From assembly GCA_963662465.1 (NCBI GenBank), contig OY759599.1:4384001-4448000 (forward strand): 64,000 nucleotides of DNA, in the 5' to 3' direction. The position numbers are program-made. Position 1 is the first letter of the stretch, and each line of letters begins with the position of its first letter. Source of the stretch: Desulfatiglandales bacterium. GTDB taxonomy: Bacteria > Desulfobacterota > DSM-4660 > Desulfatiglandales > Desulfatiglandaceae. This document shows positions 27,001-45,000 of the stretch, piece after piece.

Positions 27001-30000
27001 CCAGACTGAACATTTGCAAAGGGATGGCCCGCCGGTAGCGCAAGGGAATATTGAGAGAAATCCGTCAGGCTGAGAAGCTCCTTCCGGTTTGGCAATCGCC
27101 AGTCCGTGTAGCCGGCCGCATAGTCCCCGCATGTATAGCTCCCCGGATTGACGTTCAAGTCTGCCACCTTGGCCAAGGCGGTCTGCCAGGACATAGACCC
27201 AAAACAGTTGGCATCCTTGAGCCACATCAGTCCCGTCAGGTTGTCCGTCACCGTACCGTCCCCATTGTCGGCAAGCCGGGGGTCGGGCCAGCCCACGCCT
27301 CTTTGCAAAGCGCCGTCATCTCCGACTCCATAGCTCTGGGTCTGCCCGGTTTTCCACACGGCTGCCAGCGGGATTTTTGCGGCGCGAACCGCCCATACAT
27401 AGCTGCTGATGGACTTATTGTAGCCCTCCATGAACCCGTTGGCCATGTATATGCCCCACGCGTACCCGGTATCGTTTGCGTAGGTAGTTGATGACCAGTA
27501 ACTGAAAGACTGAACGTCCGAAAAACCGCTCAAATTCAACCAACTTCCCGAATCGTCAACTGCCGCGTTGTATAGGCTTTGCAATTCATTGACATTGGGA
27601 AGTGCCCAGTCTGAATAAGTCCCTGTGTAGCCGCCGCATGTATAACTCCCCGGATTGGCGTTCAAGTCTGTCACTTTGTCCAGGGCGGCCTGCCAGGTCA
27701 GAGACCCAAGACAATCGGCGTCTTTGAGCCACATCAATCCACTCAAATTATCGGTAATCGTCCCATCGCCATTGTCCGTGAAGCGAGGATTGGGCCAGGC
27801 CGCACCTGCTTGAATATCTCCATCTTGGCCGGTTCCGGCGCAAGGAATTACGTTGCCCCCCTCATCGTAGCATGTGATTTGGCCTGTTTTCGGAAGATCT
27901 ACCGTGCCTGCAAATAAAGTGTTCGCAGTCAGAAACAATGAACCCATGGCTAACATCACCAACACAAAAAACCTTAACTCTTTTCTCATCACATTAGTAC
28001 CTCCTTGTCAAAATTTGAACGGATTATCAAAAAAATAGAAATCGTATATGTGCACTGGCGCAAGAAAAAACGGACAAAAAAAAATCCTAATTCCCCTACA
28101 CCTCCTGAAGGTGAACATCAGCAGGGGTGACCCCACCCAGTGTCGGCCGGGGAAACTGGAAATTACTCAAGTGAACCGTTTCCCCTAATGCCAGGTGGAC
28201 GCGTTCAACATATGCCTTATGGGAAGCTGCATATATTAGAGCATCAAAACCTTATCATTTGCCTATGGTGCCAAACATGTGAGCCTGCCATTTTGTTTCC
28301 TCTTGTCTCCTAAGAAGACAGCATAAAACCTGACGCAATGTCCTCTTGCACGCGAACGTTTAGTTAACTGGAAAACGGGTTCAAAAAAATATATTATCAT
28401 TCCAGCTGGTGACTTCGTAGGAACCAACGCATTTCGGTTTATCTCCCAATACCAGTTTTCCAGTTCAACGGGGTGTTGGACAGAGCCGCGGGTCATCAGC
28501 ACATACTTTGCCGGAAGCAGGAGATCGGCTATGGAGATTAAGGGAGCTTCTCAGCTGTCGCGTGACCTCTTTTTAACCCGTCATGGCCGGTTAAGGATGA
28601 TAAAATTCCTGCTTTCAATTGCATGATCCGTCAAAAACCCTGAAATATCGCGTTATTTATCCCTTTACCAAACGCCTCGCCATTCAAGTGCCTTTTTGAA
28701 TATGCTCATGTTTATTATCGTTTTACGCTGCCTGTGCATATACCGTATCCGGGTCCTTATTGAACCTCGGAAGACTTTTTGACTTTCTTACCGGTGCAAC
28801 TATTTTCAACGTAATAAGACGTTTCCCGCAAACTGGGCAACAATCCGGTTGCTCGTCGCTTCGCTGCTGCCACAGACTCTGCCAGTCCAGAAATTCCGTA
28901 TCTTCAAGTGCCGGTTGTCCCAGTATTTCCCGGCAGCGTGCCAGTTCTTTTTTTGCGTTGTGATGGTAAAGGCCGTATGAACGCACCATCATGGAATTCG
29001 CCAGGGGAACGTGTTGCAGGTAGCGGCCGATAAAGGTTTGAATCGGCAAGGTAATGAGTCTTACCCGCTCACGACCGTAATTGAAGGTGACGTTTCCGTT
29101 TTCAATGCGGAAGATGCGTTTATTTGAGATCGGTCCGCCTCTCAGATACCGGGCCAGGTAAATTAAGACCCCTTCTCCGTATGAATAGGTCTCCTTGAGT
29201 TTAACGTTCCACTTCTTACGGCGCCCCAACTTATTAAACAGGTTTCGCGCCTGCTGCGGTCCCATGCCTTCGGGCAGAATCAGTTCTTCACGGGCAAGGG
29301 CTTTTCTCAAATAGTGGAGATATTTTCCTCGAAAAACCGCCCGGACAATGCCAAACGGCAGAAGAAACGTTTTTGATGAAGCAATCCACTCGCCGGCGGA
29401 CAGACCACCGGCCGTCACCAAACAATGCAAATGGGGATGAAAATCCAATTTTCGGCTCCAGGTATGCAACGAGGCAATGATGCCGACTTTGGCCCCCAAA
29501 TGCTTCGGGTCTCCAAGGAGTTCGGAAAGGGTCTCGGTCGCGCTTTTGAACAGCAGATTAGCCATGACTTTACGGTTCAGCCGCCATAAGTCATGCAATT
29601 CATCGGAGATGGTGAAAATAACGTGGAAATGCTCGGCACTCAGGAGTCGGGCCTTTTGTTTCGCCAGCCACCGCTCAACCTGGGTGAAGGCGCAGAGTGG
29701 GCACATACGGTGTTTACACGAGTTATACCAGACCCTCTGGAAGTGACCATCCGGACATGCCTGGACGTGCCCCCCCAGAATGGACGTGCGGCAGGACATC
29801 AGACGATGAGCCGCCTCACGAATATGTTCCGGAAGACAATGCGTCTGATTATAGAGGGCATAGCCAAGAAGAAAGATGCCCTGAATCGTCGTTTCCACTG
29901 CGATTTCACCTATTTCTACCAATTTTCGACGTTAAGTTCCCCCGCTGTCCAGCGGGTCTGTCCAACGTTTAGTTAACTGGAAAACGGGTTCAAAAAAATA

Positions 30001-42000: not shown

Positions 42001-45000
42001 TCCAAACGCCCTTGCCCGCAAATACCCCAATGCCGCCAAATCCCTGGGTTGGCAATATGTATTTCCCTCAAAAAAACGCAGCAAGGATCCCCGATCAGGT
42101 AAAACAATGCGGCATCATGTTCTTGAATCCGGGCTCCAAAAAGCCGTGAAGGCCGCTGTTGGAAAGGCGGGACTTACAAAACCCGTCGGTTGTCATACCT
42201 TTCGCCATTCTTTTGCAACGCATTTGCTTGAAAACGGGGTGAACATTCGGGTGGTTCAGGAATTGTTGGGCCATGCGGATGTGAAGACCACCGAGATCTA
42301 CACCCACGTAATGGAAAAGGACATTTCCGTGGTTCGAAGTCCTTTGGATGGGCTTTTGTGAAGTTGTCTTCATTCGATATGCCCTGATGTGTTCGCTCAT
42401 CAATCCCGTAACCGGCCTGTAAAGTCGGCACTCAAACATCCCACCTTGCCGGCTTACCCGTTTTTCGGAACTTTGATAAAGAATTTCACTCCCGGCGGAA
42501 AAGGCAGGCATGCCGGGAGCGGAACAGGCAGGTTTTAAGGGGATGCTCCATATGAAAACCTTCGGCGAATCGTTCAGGGTTTGTATGGATTGAACAGCAG
42601 CATGTCAGGGATGATACTTGGAATGGAAACAAAGTCAAGAAAAATCGATTAAAGAATAGGGAATTTCTGAGGTTGAGGCGAGGGTCAGAGATCAGAAAAA
42701 CAAAGAACTGATCCGGTACATTCAGGCGTCGTTACTTAATTGTTTTCAGCAGTGCTTTAAACTCTGTTGTGCCGGCTTTCTTGAGAATTTGGAAGATAAT
42801 GGTCTCGGTTGAGGTGACGATGGCCCCGGCTTTCCCCATCAACGACAGTCCGATCTCTCGATTGTCTTCGGTTCTGGAATCGACGGCGTGATGCGGAACA
42901 TGAACCCTGTATCCCCGTTCCAGAAGGGAGACGCATGTCTGGAAAACGCAGATGTGGGTTTCAACGCCCGTAAGGATGATATTTTTGAGGTTCCCGGCTT
43001 CAATTCCGTCATTGAAAGCGTCCACATCACAGCAGTTGAAATGCAGTTTTTCAATGGGGTTGTAAACAGGCAGGGCCTCTTGAATGACCGGCAGGGTAGG
43101 TCCCAGGTGTTTGGAATACTGTTCCGTTAATATGACGGGCAGATGAAACACACGGGCAAGGTCAAGGAGTTTCAAAAGCCTGTCTATTACACGCTCTGCC
43201 TGGCCCATGACCTGCAGGAGTTTTTCCTGTGCATCTACGATGACAAGACCTGTATTCTCTTGGTTCAATAGCGAAATGGTCATAATGTTATTAATTGTAT
43301 TCGGATCGCCATCTACTGTCAACTACCGTTTTTTGTTTGCTTGCAAATTTGGTTTGGGTTCCCGTTGAATCAAAACCGCCCGTTCGGCGGCGGCAAGCGC
43401 ACCTTCGAGATAACCACCGTGTTGACTGGCAGTTTCCGTACCGGCAAAATGGACGGCGCCGTCCCAAATGGCAGTTTGACCTGCAGGGGGATAATAGAGG
43501 GGGTGTTCAATCATGGGCGGCTGGTCATACGGGGTGGCGGTAAAGGGTTCGCGTGCCCAATCCTGGTAAAAGAACGCCGTCGGCTGGGCTGCCGGTTTTC
43601 CGTAGAGAATGGCAAGTTGAGAGAGAATCGCCTCGGTGAGACGTTGTTGAGGGTTGCGTTGAACCGCCGGAATACCGAGAAACCCGGTCAGGCCATAGGG
43701 GCCATCACCGTTGTTGCTGCCGTCATGGATCTCGCCCATGGGTCCGCACTGGCTGAAAGCCTGGCCCGAGAGGTTTCTTTGCCGCCAGAAAGGTTCTTCA
43801 TAAAGGGCGCAGAATTTCGCCTGACCCGCCATCCAGGTACCGATTTTCAGCATGGCCTGGGTCAAATTGTGGGACAATTCAGGTTCAAAGAGAATGGTAG
43901 CGGCGGCAAGACGTGGCGGCAAGGCGAGGATTACCTTATTGGCGCTGAACCGTTTCCAGGGTGCTTTCTCCAGTTCGCCGACGCTGACCAGCACGCCGGC
44001 AGACTTTTTTTCGATTTTACAGACCGGGTGATTGAGTTTGACGGCGTTTTCAGGAATTAACTCACGGAGTTTCGCCATCAGGGCCATCATACCGCCCACA
44101 AGCCGCCAGGAAAGCGGTTCCATGGGGTAACCACTCACGGTCTGGACGGCACCGTTGGAATTCTGAAACCGGCCAAACCCCTCTTCAAACTGGCGATACC
44201 CCTCGAGCCCCAGATCGTAAATAAGACGCGCCATTTTCGGATGGATTGCAGGCCAGTACCAGGAGGGACCGAGATCGGAGAAAAACCCTTGATGTTCGGG
44301 GCTCAATATCCTGCCGCCGATGCGATCGCGGGCTTCGAGAACTACAAAAGATTCATTTCGTTGGGACAGCAGGCAAGCAGCATAAATACCGCTGAGACCG
44401 CCGCCGATGATCACAATATCAACTGTTTCAGTGGGCATGGAACTATTCCGGCGGCATAGTGCTCATGTCGGGGACCCAGCCCTCGGGCGTCTTTCGGTAC
44501 AGGGGGTATCGGATGGGCGACTTGACCAGTGAGGGCCATTTGGGGTCGATAGCTCCAAGGCGGTCTATCCAAACATTGGTCTCCCGATTGGCCACCACGA
44601 TCCCCACAAGTTCAATCCCCAGTTTTTCCACCAGTTTCAATTCAGCTGACAAGGTGCCGCCGGTGCTGATGACGTCCTCCACCAGAATGACCCGCTTGCC
44701 GTCAAGACGTTCCAGCAACTTGGGATCGATATAGACCTGCTTCGGCACGGTTGGACTTGTGATGGATGTAACGGGCACGGATAGTTCATCTTCGTACCAG
44801 AATTTACGGGAATAACCCAGGGGAACATAGCGCTCATGGCCCAGTTTCCTGGCCACAATGGGGGCATAAACCATCCCCAGGGTGGGCATCCCAATAACCA
44901 CTTCCGGATCCCACTGTTTGGCCAATTTGGCCATTTCCGTTGTCAGACGGTCTTCCACCTCAAAGGTCGTTTGATTGGAGCACAGAAAGGCGATGGCCGT

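Follow-up and report, generated by a model that had tools for sequence, protein, structure and literature searches.

How does an insertion sequence come to lie eight times in succession, without a single difference, beside the attI site of an integron, and what carries it there? The question is raised by a 64,000-nt stretch of the genome of a Desulfatiglandales bacterium (contig OY759599.1, positions 4,384,001 to 4,448,000), which is called the window here and in which all positions are counted.

The tandem array and its surroundings

Positions 28355-41226 consist of eight head-to-tail units of 1609 bp, with zero mismatches among the eight in a repeat search and in direct comparison, as the initial annotation had claimed for perfect tandem copies beside intI. 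TRF with a longest period of 500 reported no repeat for this 1609-bp array. The 1609 bases beyond the last unit differ from the unit at 1166 places by direct comparison, and AAC, which is GTT on the tnpA strand, is present once more at 41227-41229 and closes the array. The array is placed between attI/intI and an ordinary cassette:

28355..41229, minus strand: tandem array, eight identical 1609-bp units plus the shared GTT on the attI side (repeat search, depth ratio)
39618..41226, minus strand: attI-proximal unit, the example unit for the sub-parts given below; the other seven are shifts by multiples of 1609
41227..41229, minus strand: GTT of the attI core, at the GACTGTT GGAC junction (sequence at the junction)
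41230..41344, no strand: attI region, from the array to intI (sequence at the junction)
41345..42361, plus strand: intI, integron integrase of 338 aa, divergent from the cassettes (TIGR02249)
26075..28354, minus strand: ordinary cassette beyond the array, starting TTCGCG, with an ORF (26583-27992) that carries an Lcl_C domain
26075..26161, minus strand: attC ending the Lcl_C cassette
25866..26015, minus strand: group II intron, domains 1-4, beginning 3 nt past the GTT of the Lcl_C-cassette attC (context only)

With a TIGR02249 score of 445.7 bits, where the cut-off is 265, the intI product is a genuine integron integrase, and the GTT of attI together with the first four bases of the unit gives GTTGGAC, which matches GTTRRRY. 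On one related metagenome contig, other sequence stands behind the same GTT.

The copy number comes from a single assembly, and 12.9 kb of perfect repeats are difficult to assemble, which would speak for an artefact with only one or two real copies. We consider this scarcely credible. In Logan contigs of one run (X1), apparently of the same strain, the word depth of unit contigs was 424 versus 33-35 for unique flanking contigs, corresponding to about 12-13 copies of the unit, against some 10 near-identical ones expected from the assembled genome. In view of this ratio a collapse artefact becomes less likely; the earlier caveat that the copy number may be wrong stands insofar as depth does not fix the exact number at eight. 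The host genome was moreover assembled as one 8.16-Mb contig, and relatives lie in tandem in four other assemblies.

The transposase

Each 1609-bp unit has one ORF on the minus strand, giving 391 aa from a GTG start or 399 aa from a TTG start:

39986..41161, minus strand: tnpA, 391 aa, IS91-family Y2 HUH transposase with a Zn-binding N-terminal domain (Pfam, NCBIfam, motifs)

The protein matched Pfam Y2_Tnp (5e-49, 167 bits) and Zn_Tnp_IS91 (2e-24, 86 bits), no other Pfam family, and NCBIfam NF033538 for IS91 family transposases (357 bits, cut-off 125). Its catalytic motifs, H156-L-H158 as HUH and the tyrosines Y247 and Y251, are unchanged among 20 aligned homologues with identities down to 52%. 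The annotated 391-aa IS91-family HUH Y2 transposase was thereby corroborated. Membership in IS1111-attC was rejected, in agreement with the annotation, since Pfam gave Y2_Tnp and Zn_Tnp_IS91 alone and the element lies between sites, not within one.

Judging by dN/dS values of 0.06-0.12 between lineages, tnpA is under strong purifying selection; seven diverged copies in the host genome each retain the 391-codon frame. The first 25 nt of the element are identical among the eight copies that retain their first bases, including one of 73% identity, while copies C and D (see below) are without the first 3 nt. Together with the dN/dS values and the invariant HUH and tyrosine residues, this means that the transposase matters to the element.

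The ends of the element

Three features were recognised outside tnpA:

41204..41219, minus strand: 5' subterminal hairpin CCCGCTG-GA-CAGCGGG (sequence; relatives)
39792..39797, minus strand: CCATAG motif in the 3' untranslated part (family alignment)
39618..39744, minus strand: the unit's own attC, about 130 nt (folds, covariation, covariance-model matches on relatives' modules)

On the antisense strand the 5' end reads CCCGCTG-TC-CAGCGGG, TCT and GTCC, then AAC. Upstream of tnpA there is thus a single subterminal palindrome beside a cleavage word of the GTTC type, which is how terIS is defined in the excerpt of PMC13181058 that we used; many relatives have GTTC instead of GTCC. By its sequence, the 5' end looks like the terIS of IS91. 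The CCATAG motif, retained in 24 of 25 aligned family members, is a candidate recognition or nick site of the transposase.

The order of boxes at the 3' end is that of an attC: R'' GTCCAAC, an ACCCC spacer, L'' GTTgAACTGGAAAAC with one bulged base, a variable loop, L' GTTTTCCAGTTAAC, a TAAAC spacer and GTT. R' is closed by GGAC, the first bases of the next unit in a tandem or circular form; GTCCAAC pairs with GTT plus GGAC, and pairing reaches 15 bp in the tandem form. Folded over the tandem junction, the bottom strand forms a 15-bp R stem, an internal loop of 4-5 nt, a 14-bp L stem with one bulge, and the variable loop, at -28.9 kcal/mol (z -5.2). The boxes follow one another in the same order and at the same spacing as in the ordinary attCs of the host genome, and the bulge lies where it does in these attCs and in their consensus structure. 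Between lineages, 7 of 17 L-stem pairs have changed on both sides, and 83.5% of cells pair, a value that falls to 54% at most when the stem is slid and is reached by none of 500 shuffles.

A covariance model trained solely on 11 non-element attCs of the host genome matched the 3' module of copy A (33.5 bits, E 1e-6), but gave no match, with filters off too, on the module of the window unit or of copies E, H and I. For the window unit the attC call therefore rests on fold, box layout and covariation. A complete attC of its own, completed by its own first bases, gives the unit the anatomy of a gene cassette, so that the 1609-bp unit is, as far as sequence can tell, a rolling-circle element of the IS91 family that is constructed like an integron gene cassette.

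Ten loci in the host genome

A blastn search with the unit against the whole 8.16-Mb genome found ten loci (A-J) of 73-100% identity, all of which adjoin attI or attC, with cassette orientation in arrays and boundaries between G and TT. For this genome, the annotated confinement to integron attI/attC junctions was thus borne out. Upstream, loci B, F and I have attI with intI, locus E has an attI-like stretch that lacks intI, and A, C, D, G, H and J have an attC.

The left end, said to be always at GTT, follows GTT as GGACAGACCCGCTGGACAGCGGGGG in 8/10 loci, while C and D begin with CAGACCC right behind a group II intron, whose far side reads attC...GTTGGC. These flanks agree with the proposal that both are elements split by an intron, with their first 3 nt missing. 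The shared core ending proposed for the right end was seen in seven loci, as GTTAACTAAA(A)CGTT; copy C ends in CTAAACG followed by ATGG, D is broken off within the terminal hairpin and J at base 963. In copies G and H, group II introns lie 3 nt past the GTT of the element's own attC.

The bases after AAACGTT are CGCG, ATGT, CTCG, GTGG and GGCG, so that GTT, or AAC on the opposite strand, is all that is shared. The canonical IS91 target GTTC/CTTG abutting oriIS is absent from the flanks of the element in the host genome. Apart from GTT, the attI sequences used are unrelated, and their integrases are just 52% alike. Identical elements were found at two attI regions about 86-90% alike, with identity beginning at GTT (B versus F; D. 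limicola). The other IS91-type family of the genome (435 aa, 23% identical) lies away from integron att sites, at CTTG/GTTC.

Relatives in other genomes

GTT followed by a GC hairpin was found in 41/62 related loci. Among the 43 loci for which a script placed the 5' end (these 41 at GTT and two elsewhere), 29 have a box downstream of tnpA that is complementary, with three mismatches or fewer, to the first 13 nt; in 26 of them there are two or fewer. The L stem, with at least 8/10 pairs and ending in GTT, was present in 24 of the 28 related loci scanned. Cassette-like anatomy thus recurs in relatives from several phyla, where the stems covary and the R box covaries with the 5' end. In other genomes the host-trained attC model matched 11 modules at 10 loci (E 7e-8 to 0.03), and of its 27 matches in related loci 26 have the same orientation as tnpA.

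A divergent IntI gene lies within 1.5 kb upstream in 12 of the 56 related loci with enough flank; at 41 of them no IntI homologue was found within about 4 kb upstream, though many of these may be deep in arrays. Four other genomes (L006, L033, L039 and L045) also have copies in tandem. The two units of L006 are 94.7% alike, which indicates separate insertions and no duplication. No integrase above the TIGR02249 cut-off was found in Natroniella (complete genome) or Undibacterium nitidum (draft), both of which have tandem copies, and the Natroniella tandem junction folds no better than shuffles (z -0.76). The family is multi-copy in many genomes, often with one contig of the element's own length.

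The transposase of gcISKpn22/ISKpn22 is 37% identical over 93% of the query. This relative is the fourth and last cassette in In722, a clinical class 1 integron. An excerpt of PMC6262049 lists it among the cassettes of In722, with the INTEGRALL name gcISKpn22, and in the excerpted text of PMC12772345 In722 is reported both with and without it.

How the array may have arisen

Our preferred reading, held at about even confidence, is that of a self-copying cassette, for which the Y2 enzyme would make single-stranded circles and IntI would insert them at attI or attC. The transposase would nick the element and release unit-length circles of the bottom strand, which is both the strand moved by IS91 and the strand on which attC sites fold; insertion of IS91 as a bottom-strand single-stranded circle is described in the cited excerpt of PMC13181058. 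The resident IntI would then recombine the folded attC of the circle with attI, as the preferred site, or with another attC, between G and TT, and every new copy would enter between attI and the preceding one. Since new copies would land beside attI, repeated rounds could give a perfect head-to-tail array there.

If IntI inserts the unit as a cassette, a position at the GTT of attI or attC is to be expected, and no new target specificity of the transposase is needed. The insertion sites comprise unrelated attIs, ordinary attCs and, in a class 1 integron, the aadA2 attC; they share just the GTT core and their nature as IntI substrates. GTT is everywhere, yet 10/10 loci are att sites, which points to IntI, as do the 12/56 related loci with a divergent IntI gene close upstream and the identical elements at two attI regions of about 86-90% likeness. 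The initial annotation, in describing an insertion sequence that hits GTT core sites, was right about the position at att sites and missed the unit's own terminal attC, hence the cassette anatomy. IntI acting on circular copies, which it had mentioned as a caveat, seems on the present evidence the more likely half of the mechanism. With its cassette anatomy, the element probably spreads by the integron's own machinery. Several observations count against the self-copying reading: the tandem copies in Natroniella and U. nitidum without a detected integrase, the 41/56 related loci without a nearby IntI, the covariance model without a match on the window unit, and the In722 relative as last, not first, cassette. 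In principle, an integrase alone might also duplicate a cassette, and RecA might expand two copies to eight.

It is rather unlikely that the transposase acts alone, one of the two mechanisms that the initial annotation had named, with Y2 excising and inserting the element by an IS91-type rolling circle, the attC-like end being target mimicry and IntI unneeded. Its target would be (N)GTT on the tnpA strand (on the bottom strand, NAAC ahead of the ori end), beside a hairpin. As is the rule for IS91, the target does resemble the element's last bases, with flanks ending in TGTT, GGTT or CGTT and an element ending in CGTT; the canonical IS91-type family of the host genome follows the same logic with CTTG/GTTC, and the excerpt of PMC13181058 describes it for IS91, IS801 and IS1294. 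The terIS-like 5' end, the tandem copies in two genomes without detectable IntI, the In722 relative behind the last attC and away from attI, and the purifying selection on the transposase fit as well. A target of 3-4 nt, however, leaves the att sites at all ten loci unexplained; attI has no hairpin, the attIs used are wholly different save for GTT, and recognition by IntI is the property they share with attC. The layout of a full attC, with R''/R' complementarity, 5-nt spacers and bulge position, also exceeds a hairpin and is retained by compensatory changes.

More improbable still is a passive cassette, in which the transposase is mere cargo moved by IntI and the array grew by IntI re-insertion or unequal homologous recombination, perhaps under selection. 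It would account for the cassette anatomy and for the INTEGRALL entry of a relative as a gene cassette (PMC6262049, excerpt), and RecA is able to expand an array of identical units once two copies are present. Useless cargo would be expected to decay, whereas the seven diverged copies keep their reading frame at the low dN/dS values given above and the catalytic residues are invariant across phyla. The 5' hairpin and CCATAG are conserved in the family though no attC requires them, many genomes have several copies of the element, which often forms a contig of its own length, and the L006 units, at 94.7% identity, are no duplication.

Comparison with known systems

ISKpn22 resembles the unit at both ends. 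It starts with GTT and GAACTTGCC plus a hairpin right behind the aadA2 attC, and ends in its own attC (GTTCAAC aatac GATGAATCAG...CTGATTATC taagc GTT), right before the 3' conserved segment. The attC covariance model gave 19 bits on this module (E 0.004) and 24.5 bits on the aadA2 attC beside it. Its attC is shorter than that of the unit, at about 90 nt, and, unlike the array in the window, it is a single copy in the last position of a clinical mobile integron (IncN plasmids, pKPI-6 type), found in 11 plasmid records alone, at one place in each. This kind of element is already on record in databases, as gcISKpn22, and the designation of a new kind of integron-targeting insertion sequence was too strong, given a relative of the same anatomy among the cassettes of In722 (PMC6262049, excerpt). 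Our literature search found no paper that analyses this cassette-like IS91 family or the mechanism of ISKpn22.

With IS91, IS801, IS1294 and ISCR, the unit has in common a Y2 HUH transposase with a Zn domain, and with the IS91 family one ter-end palindrome followed by GTCC or GTTC in antisense and the absence of a target duplication except for a shared short word. The IS91 family is known to give tandem or one-ended products. The canonical IS91 target at the ori end is GTTC/CTTG, whereas the word shared by the unit is GTT, its ori end is a full attC, and its copies are all at integron att sites, with the canonical-type 435-aa family of the host genome elsewhere. The layout of ter end, tnpA and longer ori end is shared with ISCR1 as described in an excerpt of PMC6218425. 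By that description ISCR has an oriIS and no recognisable terIS, stays outside cassette arrays and captures genes next to it, while the unit has a ter-like end; ISCR1, which is no cassette, is placed past the 3' conserved segment, whereas the unit lies within arrays.

Ordinary cassettes share with the unit the bounds between G and TT, one ORF in cassette orientation, the position at attI or behind another attC, and a terminal attC (R'', L'', L', R') with 5-nt spacers, a bulge and first bases that finish R'. The unit differs in an R''/R' complementarity of 13-15 bp versus 7, about 240 nt from stop codon to R'' with the conserved CCATAG, a conserved 5' hairpin, multiple copies and tandem arrays, and a cargo that is a mobile-element enzyme under selection. 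IS1111 elements have a DDE-type transposase, and group IIC-attC introns a reverse transcriptase and a ribozyme. IS1111-attC and group IIC-attC introns are, like the unit, mobile elements confined to integron recombination sites, but they interrupt attC, whereas the unit carries an attC of its own and lies between sites in the manner of a cassette.

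Results

The Eight-Unit Array and Its Integron

The 1609-bp IS91-family element lies in eight head-to-tail copies at the attI of an integron whose parts are as follows.

Features of the integron in the window
25866-26074: group II intron downstream of the Lcl_C cassette, 3 nt past the GTT of its attC
26075-28354: ordinary cassette below the array, with an Lcl_C-domain ORF and an attC at 26075-26161
28355-41226: eight 1609-bp units, head to tail, read on the - strand
41227-41229: extra AAC (GTT on the gene strand), one occurrence beyond the eight units
41345-42361: intI, divergent from the cassettes, a true integron integrase (TIGR02249, 445.7 bits against a cut-off of 265)

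A repeat search and a direct comparison of the units gave 0 differences over 28355-41226, confirming the perfect array described in the initial annotation; TRF was silent on it because its longest searched period was 500. The order on the - strand is attI ...CCTATTAGGACT GTT (GGACAGACCC ... CCAGTTAACTAAAC GTT) x8 CGCGTGCAAG..., where the next cassette begins with CGCGTGCAAG. In one metagenome contig that has a related attI-intI, a different sequence comes after the same GTT, which fits GTT as the junction. Eight identical units would look the same whether they arose by sequential insertion, as a rolling-circle concatemer or by RecA expansion. Promoter and terminator scans of the unit revealed nothing above shuffles, and no Rfam family matched it. 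One more attC match (window 1396-1456, - strand, 34 bits, E 6e-7), oriented like the array, was seen 25 kb below it; judged from this match, the integron may have a cassette array of about 40 kb.

Ten Loci in the Source Genome

By blastn of the unit, ten element loci (A to J, F being the window array) were found in the single 8.16-Mb contig. Full length or nearly so are B (100%), C (99.3%), the array F, D (83.5%), I (82.7%), E, G, H (79.6%) and A (73%, full length), while J is truncated. A GTT stands immediately before GGACAGACCCGCTGGACAGCGGGGG at eight of the ten loci. Upstream of B, F and I we found attI and intI, upstream of E a diverged attI-type region without intI, and upstream of A, C, D, G, H and J attC sites; with all ten loci at att sites, the claim that the element occurs only in integrons is borne out for the source genome. 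As had also been stated, C and D begin with CAGACCC right behind a group II intron, on whose other side lies attC...GTTGGC.

Group II introns in cassette orientation were seen exactly 3 nt past an attC GTT (GTTCGC^GTGCGAC, GTTGGC^ATGCGAC, a caret marking the junction) at window 25866-26074 and at two further loci of this genome (L078 2137-4700, L079 ~3260-4083). The 3' junction of copy C (genome 3341300-3341310) reads ...CTAAACG^ATGGTTGCAGTGG, not ...CGTT; the first bases of its flank, ATGGTT, are the six that close the other attI type, and the identical junction is present in a contig of run X3.

The Transposase Gene and the 5' End

Each unit has a single ORF of 391 aa from a GTG, with the Pfam domains Y2_Tnp and IS91 zinc-binding and a score of 357 bits for the NCBIfam model "IS91 family transposase" (cut-off 125). 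The 391-codon frame is intact in all seven diverged copies of the genome, dN/dS of tnpA between its lineages is 0.06-0.12, and none of 20 homologues, with identities down to 52%, departs from H156-L-H158 or Y247/Y251. All eight copies retaining their first bases, including the 73% copy, agree in the first 25 nt; on the antisense strand this 5' end is a palindrome followed by TCTGTCC (TCTGTTC in many relatives). Taken together, frame retention, dN/dS, invariant residues and the conserved end show that the enzyme and its end are under selection.

A Putative attC at the 3' End of the Unit

In gene orientation, the final 127 nt read GTCCAAC (R'') ACCCC GTTgAACTGGAAAAC (L'') ... GTTTTCCAGTTAAC (L') TAAAC GTT^GGAC, the closing four bases belonging to the next unit. 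In a circle or a tandem, the R' box would be closed by the unit's own first bases. Folding of the bottom strand over the tandem junction gave an R stem of 15 bp, then an internal loop of 4-5 nt, an L stem of 14 bp in which a single base is bulged, and finally a variable loop (-28.9 kcal/mol, z -5.2; none of 200 shuffles did as well), the top strand having a slightly poorer fold. In the order of its boxes, the length of its spacers and the position of its bulge the module agrees with the ordinary attCs of the genome (CGCGAAC caaac GCTcCACCGG...CCGGTGAGC ttgtc GTTCGCG), and compensatory changes of the L stem are seen among the genome lineages (AACTGGAAAAC/GTTTTCCAGTT, AACAGGCAAAC/GTTCGCCTGTT, AACCGGCAAAC/GTTTGCCGGTT). 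In ten modules of about 130 nt each, both sides are altered in 7 of the 17 L-stem pairs; 83.5% of the L-stem cells pair, against at most 54% with the partner slid, and none of 500 shuffles reached the observed values. With its own putative attC, supported by layout, fold and covariation, the unit therefore has the anatomy of a gene cassette: TT, body and an attC ending in G. The initial reading of an integron-targeting IS91-family insertion sequence is thus supported in part, since it had overlooked this terminal attC and with it the cassette anatomy.

A covariance model trained on 11 non-element attCs of the source genome recovered further ordinary attCs and scored 24.5 bits on the attC of aadA2 in a class 1 integron, so that it generalises. 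It matched the 3' module of copy A (33.5 bits, E 1e-6), that of the clinical relative ISKpn22 (19 bits, E 0.004) and 11 own modules in 10 related loci of other genomes (E 7e-8 to 0.03); in related loci, 26 of 27 matches were co-oriented with the transposase gene. No match, also with filters off, was obtained for the module of the window unit (via the identical copy B) or those of E, H and I; in the window lineage, the putative attC is called from fold, layout and covariation.

Our own genome-wide attC pattern scan proved far too permissive (~44,000 raw matches, clusters everywhere) and was used solely after strict filtering, to choose a few clear attCs. Of the elements' own modules the pattern heuristic picked out no more than 13 of 28, and on the relatives' 5' flanks (5 of 37 attC-like against 70 of 1622 control GTTs) it was too weak. 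A first alignment (A2) of the short 3' modules was structurally inconsistent and no model was made from it.

In copies G and H (L082, L083), a group II intron lies 3 nt past the GTT of the element's own attC (GTTCTC^GCGCC...); introns therefore treat the element end as an attC.

The Family in Other Genomes

A large collection held 3359 homologues of the transposase at E <= 1e-20, many on contigs of about element length, and when one genome was scanned for each species, 75 loci turned up in Desulfobacterota, Nitrospirota, Nitrospinota, Gamma- and Betaproteobacteria and Halanaerobiales. A GTT followed by a GC-rich hairpin within 16 nt was present at 41 of the 62 loci examined, and the relatives' junctions (GTTGGAC, GTTGAAC, GTTAAAT, GTTAGAT, GTTGCAC etc.) mostly fit the core-site consensus GTTRRRY. 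A script placed a 5' end at 43 loci, these 41 and two not at GTT, and a box complementary to the first 13 nt (<=3 mismatches) was found downstream of tnpA at 29 of the 43; 26 of the 29 boxes have <=2 mismatches, where chance would give about 0.014 per locus. With two exceptions the box lies 170-320 nt beyond tnpA, and it covaries with the 5' end, e.g., AGATTCGCCG with CGGCGAATCTAAC. In 24 of 28 scanned, 8 or more of the 10 L-stem pairs form and the stem ends with spacer and GTT, the bulge being mostly at the third or fourth position. Relatives have a unit length of 1.47-1.7 kb, and 24 of 25 aligned members carry a CCATAG motif 10-60 nt before R''. The 5' hairpin and CCATAG are conserved features that no attC needs. 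Upstream flank of 1.5 kb or more was available at 56 loci: at 12 of them a divergent IntI homologue (>=40% identical) begins no farther than 1.5 kb from tnpA, and at 3 more one lies within 4 kb; none was found in the upstream flank examined of the other 41.

Tandem copies in other assemblies
L033, Undibacterium nitidum: 2 x 1531 bp, units identical
L039, an Oceanospirillales strain: 2 x 1546 bp, units identical
L045, Natroniella: 3 units, period 1627
L006, MAG contig labelled Ca. Argoarchaeum ethanivorans: 2 x 1631 bp, units 94.7% identical

The last pair cannot be a simple duplication, and tandem insertion, seen in these four assemblies, is thus a habit of the family.

Several relatives displayed further features. 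The complete genome of Natroniella sp. (L043-L046) holds the three tandem 1627-bp units and further copies of a 44%-identical family member, all starting at GTT^ATATTAAATGC; the recombinase beside the cluster (L044:1283-2386) scores as XerA-like (231 bits, against 217 bits for the IntI model) with its middle part missing. Two loci of U. nitidum (L032, L033) have 37 nt in common upstream of the element (...CACTTTAAAACAAGTT^), the elements being 92% alike. At L002 (5416-5505), an 87%-identical transposase stands before an attC module of quite another kind, 84 nt long (GGATCGAGCGG.../...CCGCTCATCC), from which attC modules are apparently exchangeable between elements. Different members with transposases 40-50% identical stand one right behind the other, in the same orientation, at L006 (2411-6640) and L022 (1660-5107), as if each used the preceding attC as its landing site.

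The attI (231 nt) and copy I (genome 6790911-6792745) are 93.7% identical to positions 3704-5537 of L001, from a Desulfatiglandales MAG, whereas the flanking genes are only ~70% alike, a contrast which points to recent horizontal transfer of this segment. In the L001 MAG, the homology ends at the first intI codons, with no intI beyond.

We also considered whether pieces of attI travel with the element by read-through at ter. Copy E has a diverged yet complete attI-type region, not a fragment, and L001, having attI and element in common with copy I, looks like an integron with its intI cut off. Desulfoluna limicola carries a ~99% identical element at two attI regions that are ~86% alike, and the attI parts of B and F are likewise much less alike than their elements; in both cases identity begins at GTT. 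Read-through is therefore unsupported at these loci; the 37 nt shared upstream at L032 and L033 of U. nitidum could still reflect it.

Discussion

How the Element Inserts

We infer, with about even confidence, a split mechanism from these sequences: the Y2 transposase would copy out single-stranded circles of the element, and the resident IntI would paste them in at att sites. IS91 is reported, in the excerpted text of PMC13181058, to insert as a bottom-strand single-stranded circle, and in our element the bottom strand is that of the best attC fold. A cut at G^TT (IntI) and one beside GTT (Y2) leave the same sequence because the triplet is repeated. For IntI speaks that GTT is ubiquitous, yet every copy in the source genome is at an att site, and that the integrases whose attI sites are used are just 52% alike, those sites having the core alone in common. 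attI has no hairpin, and IntI enzymes recombine attI and attCs with a folded attC; recombination of this sort would be what attI, the local attCs and the aadA2 attC share, and a putative attC is what the element carries.

Against IntI, no integrase above the TIGR02249 cut-off was found in two of the four other tandem genomes, those of Natroniella (complete) and U. nitidum (draft). Natroniella has only a Xer-like recombinase beside the cluster, no attC-like fold was found at its tandem junction, and the element is last, not first, in In722, a class 1 integron of clinical plasmids that carries ISKpn22. A mechanism of the transposase only, with no part for IntI, would suit these facts; set against the confinement to att sites, we regard it as unlikely. 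That the element is a passive cassette, as its anatomy might suggest, is quite improbable, the selection on enzyme and 5' end counting against it. It is very improbable that the eight-copy array is an assembly artefact: in Logan contigs of run X1, the two unit contigs had a word depth, which does not equal copy number, of 424, and unique flank contigs without differences one of 33-35, and this supports a dozen or so near-identical unit copies in that strain. No Logan contig joined two units over a tandem junction, the stretch compared beginning at the unit boundary.

Implications for Integrons

Integrons are the main gene-capture system behind multi-resistance, and attI is the most expressed cassette position; to our knowledge, the origin of cassettes and attC sites and the copying, rather than mere shuffling, of cassettes are both open questions. 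The element is a natural case of a rolling-circle enzyme and a complete attC in one unit, found across phyla, at attI and in tandem. It is possible, if doubtful, that a widespread IS91-type family, from sulfate reducers to clinical plasmids, has fused two single-strand DNA systems, in which the ori-ter junction would be a working attC, the HUH transposase would make single-stranded cassette circles and the host IntI would install them, so that the cassette would replicate and amplify itself. Read-through at ter is well known in IS91 elements, so the same machinery could occasionally package neighbouring DNA with an attC, which, if true, would be a route to new gene cassettes. If the split mechanism is true, mobile DNA would have a novel means of parasitising integrons, and silencing of an array could also follow because 12.9 kb now part attI and intI from the downstream cassettes. 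The element offers a testable model of replicative cassette spread, in a family that is small, intact and has a clinical relative catalogued yet unstudied.

Comparison with Known Elements

The 5' end, a palindrome plus TCTGTCC, agrees with the terIS of the IS91 family as described in the excerpt of PMC13181058, a single subterminal palindrome beside a GTTC-type cleavage word, and the order of short ter region, tnpA and long ori region is shared with ISCR1 (PMC6218425, in part). A second IS91-type family of the same genome (435 aa, 23% identical), located elsewhere, follows the textbook CTTG/GTTC logic. It was seen at genome 380871-382437 and 10 more places (e.g., 506199, 1051500, 7213310), with the ends CTTG or GTTC (target) ^ AAAGCATAGGAA ... 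palindrome GCGCGCGTTAGCGCGC TAAGTTC^, the copy at 1051500 being directly behind the end of another copy. Its palindrome end lies downstream of tnpA on the sense strand, opposite to that of the integron element.

A tblastn search of plasmids revealed a transposase with 37% identity on pKPI-6-type IncN plasmids, where the relative, ISKpn22, takes fourth place among the cassettes of a class 1 integron (aacA4', blaIMP-6, aadA2, element, qacEdelta1-sul1). It has the same anatomy as the window unit: it starts at the aadA2 attC with ...GGCGTT^GAACTTGCC plus hairpin and ends with GTTCAAC aatac GATGAATCAG...CTGATTATC taagc GTT^AGATGCACTAAGC, where AGATGCACTAAGC opens the 3' conserved segment. Its unit was found in one plasmid context only and is therefore uninformative on its mobility. 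In722 stands in INTEGRALL as intI1, aacA4'-3, blaIMP-6, aadA2, gcISKpn22 (PMC6262049, in part) and is mentioned both with and without ISKpn22 in the excerpt of PMC12772345. Our literature search, which covered papers and not ISfinder or INTEGRALL entries, found no paper analysing such elements beyond remarks on In722/ISKpn22. IS91-family elements built as integron cassettes are a kind already in the databases and little noticed, and the window array is a new, eight-fold tandem member of the gcISKpn22 kind; new here is a widespread family shown to combine a conserved cassette anatomy with that of a transposon.
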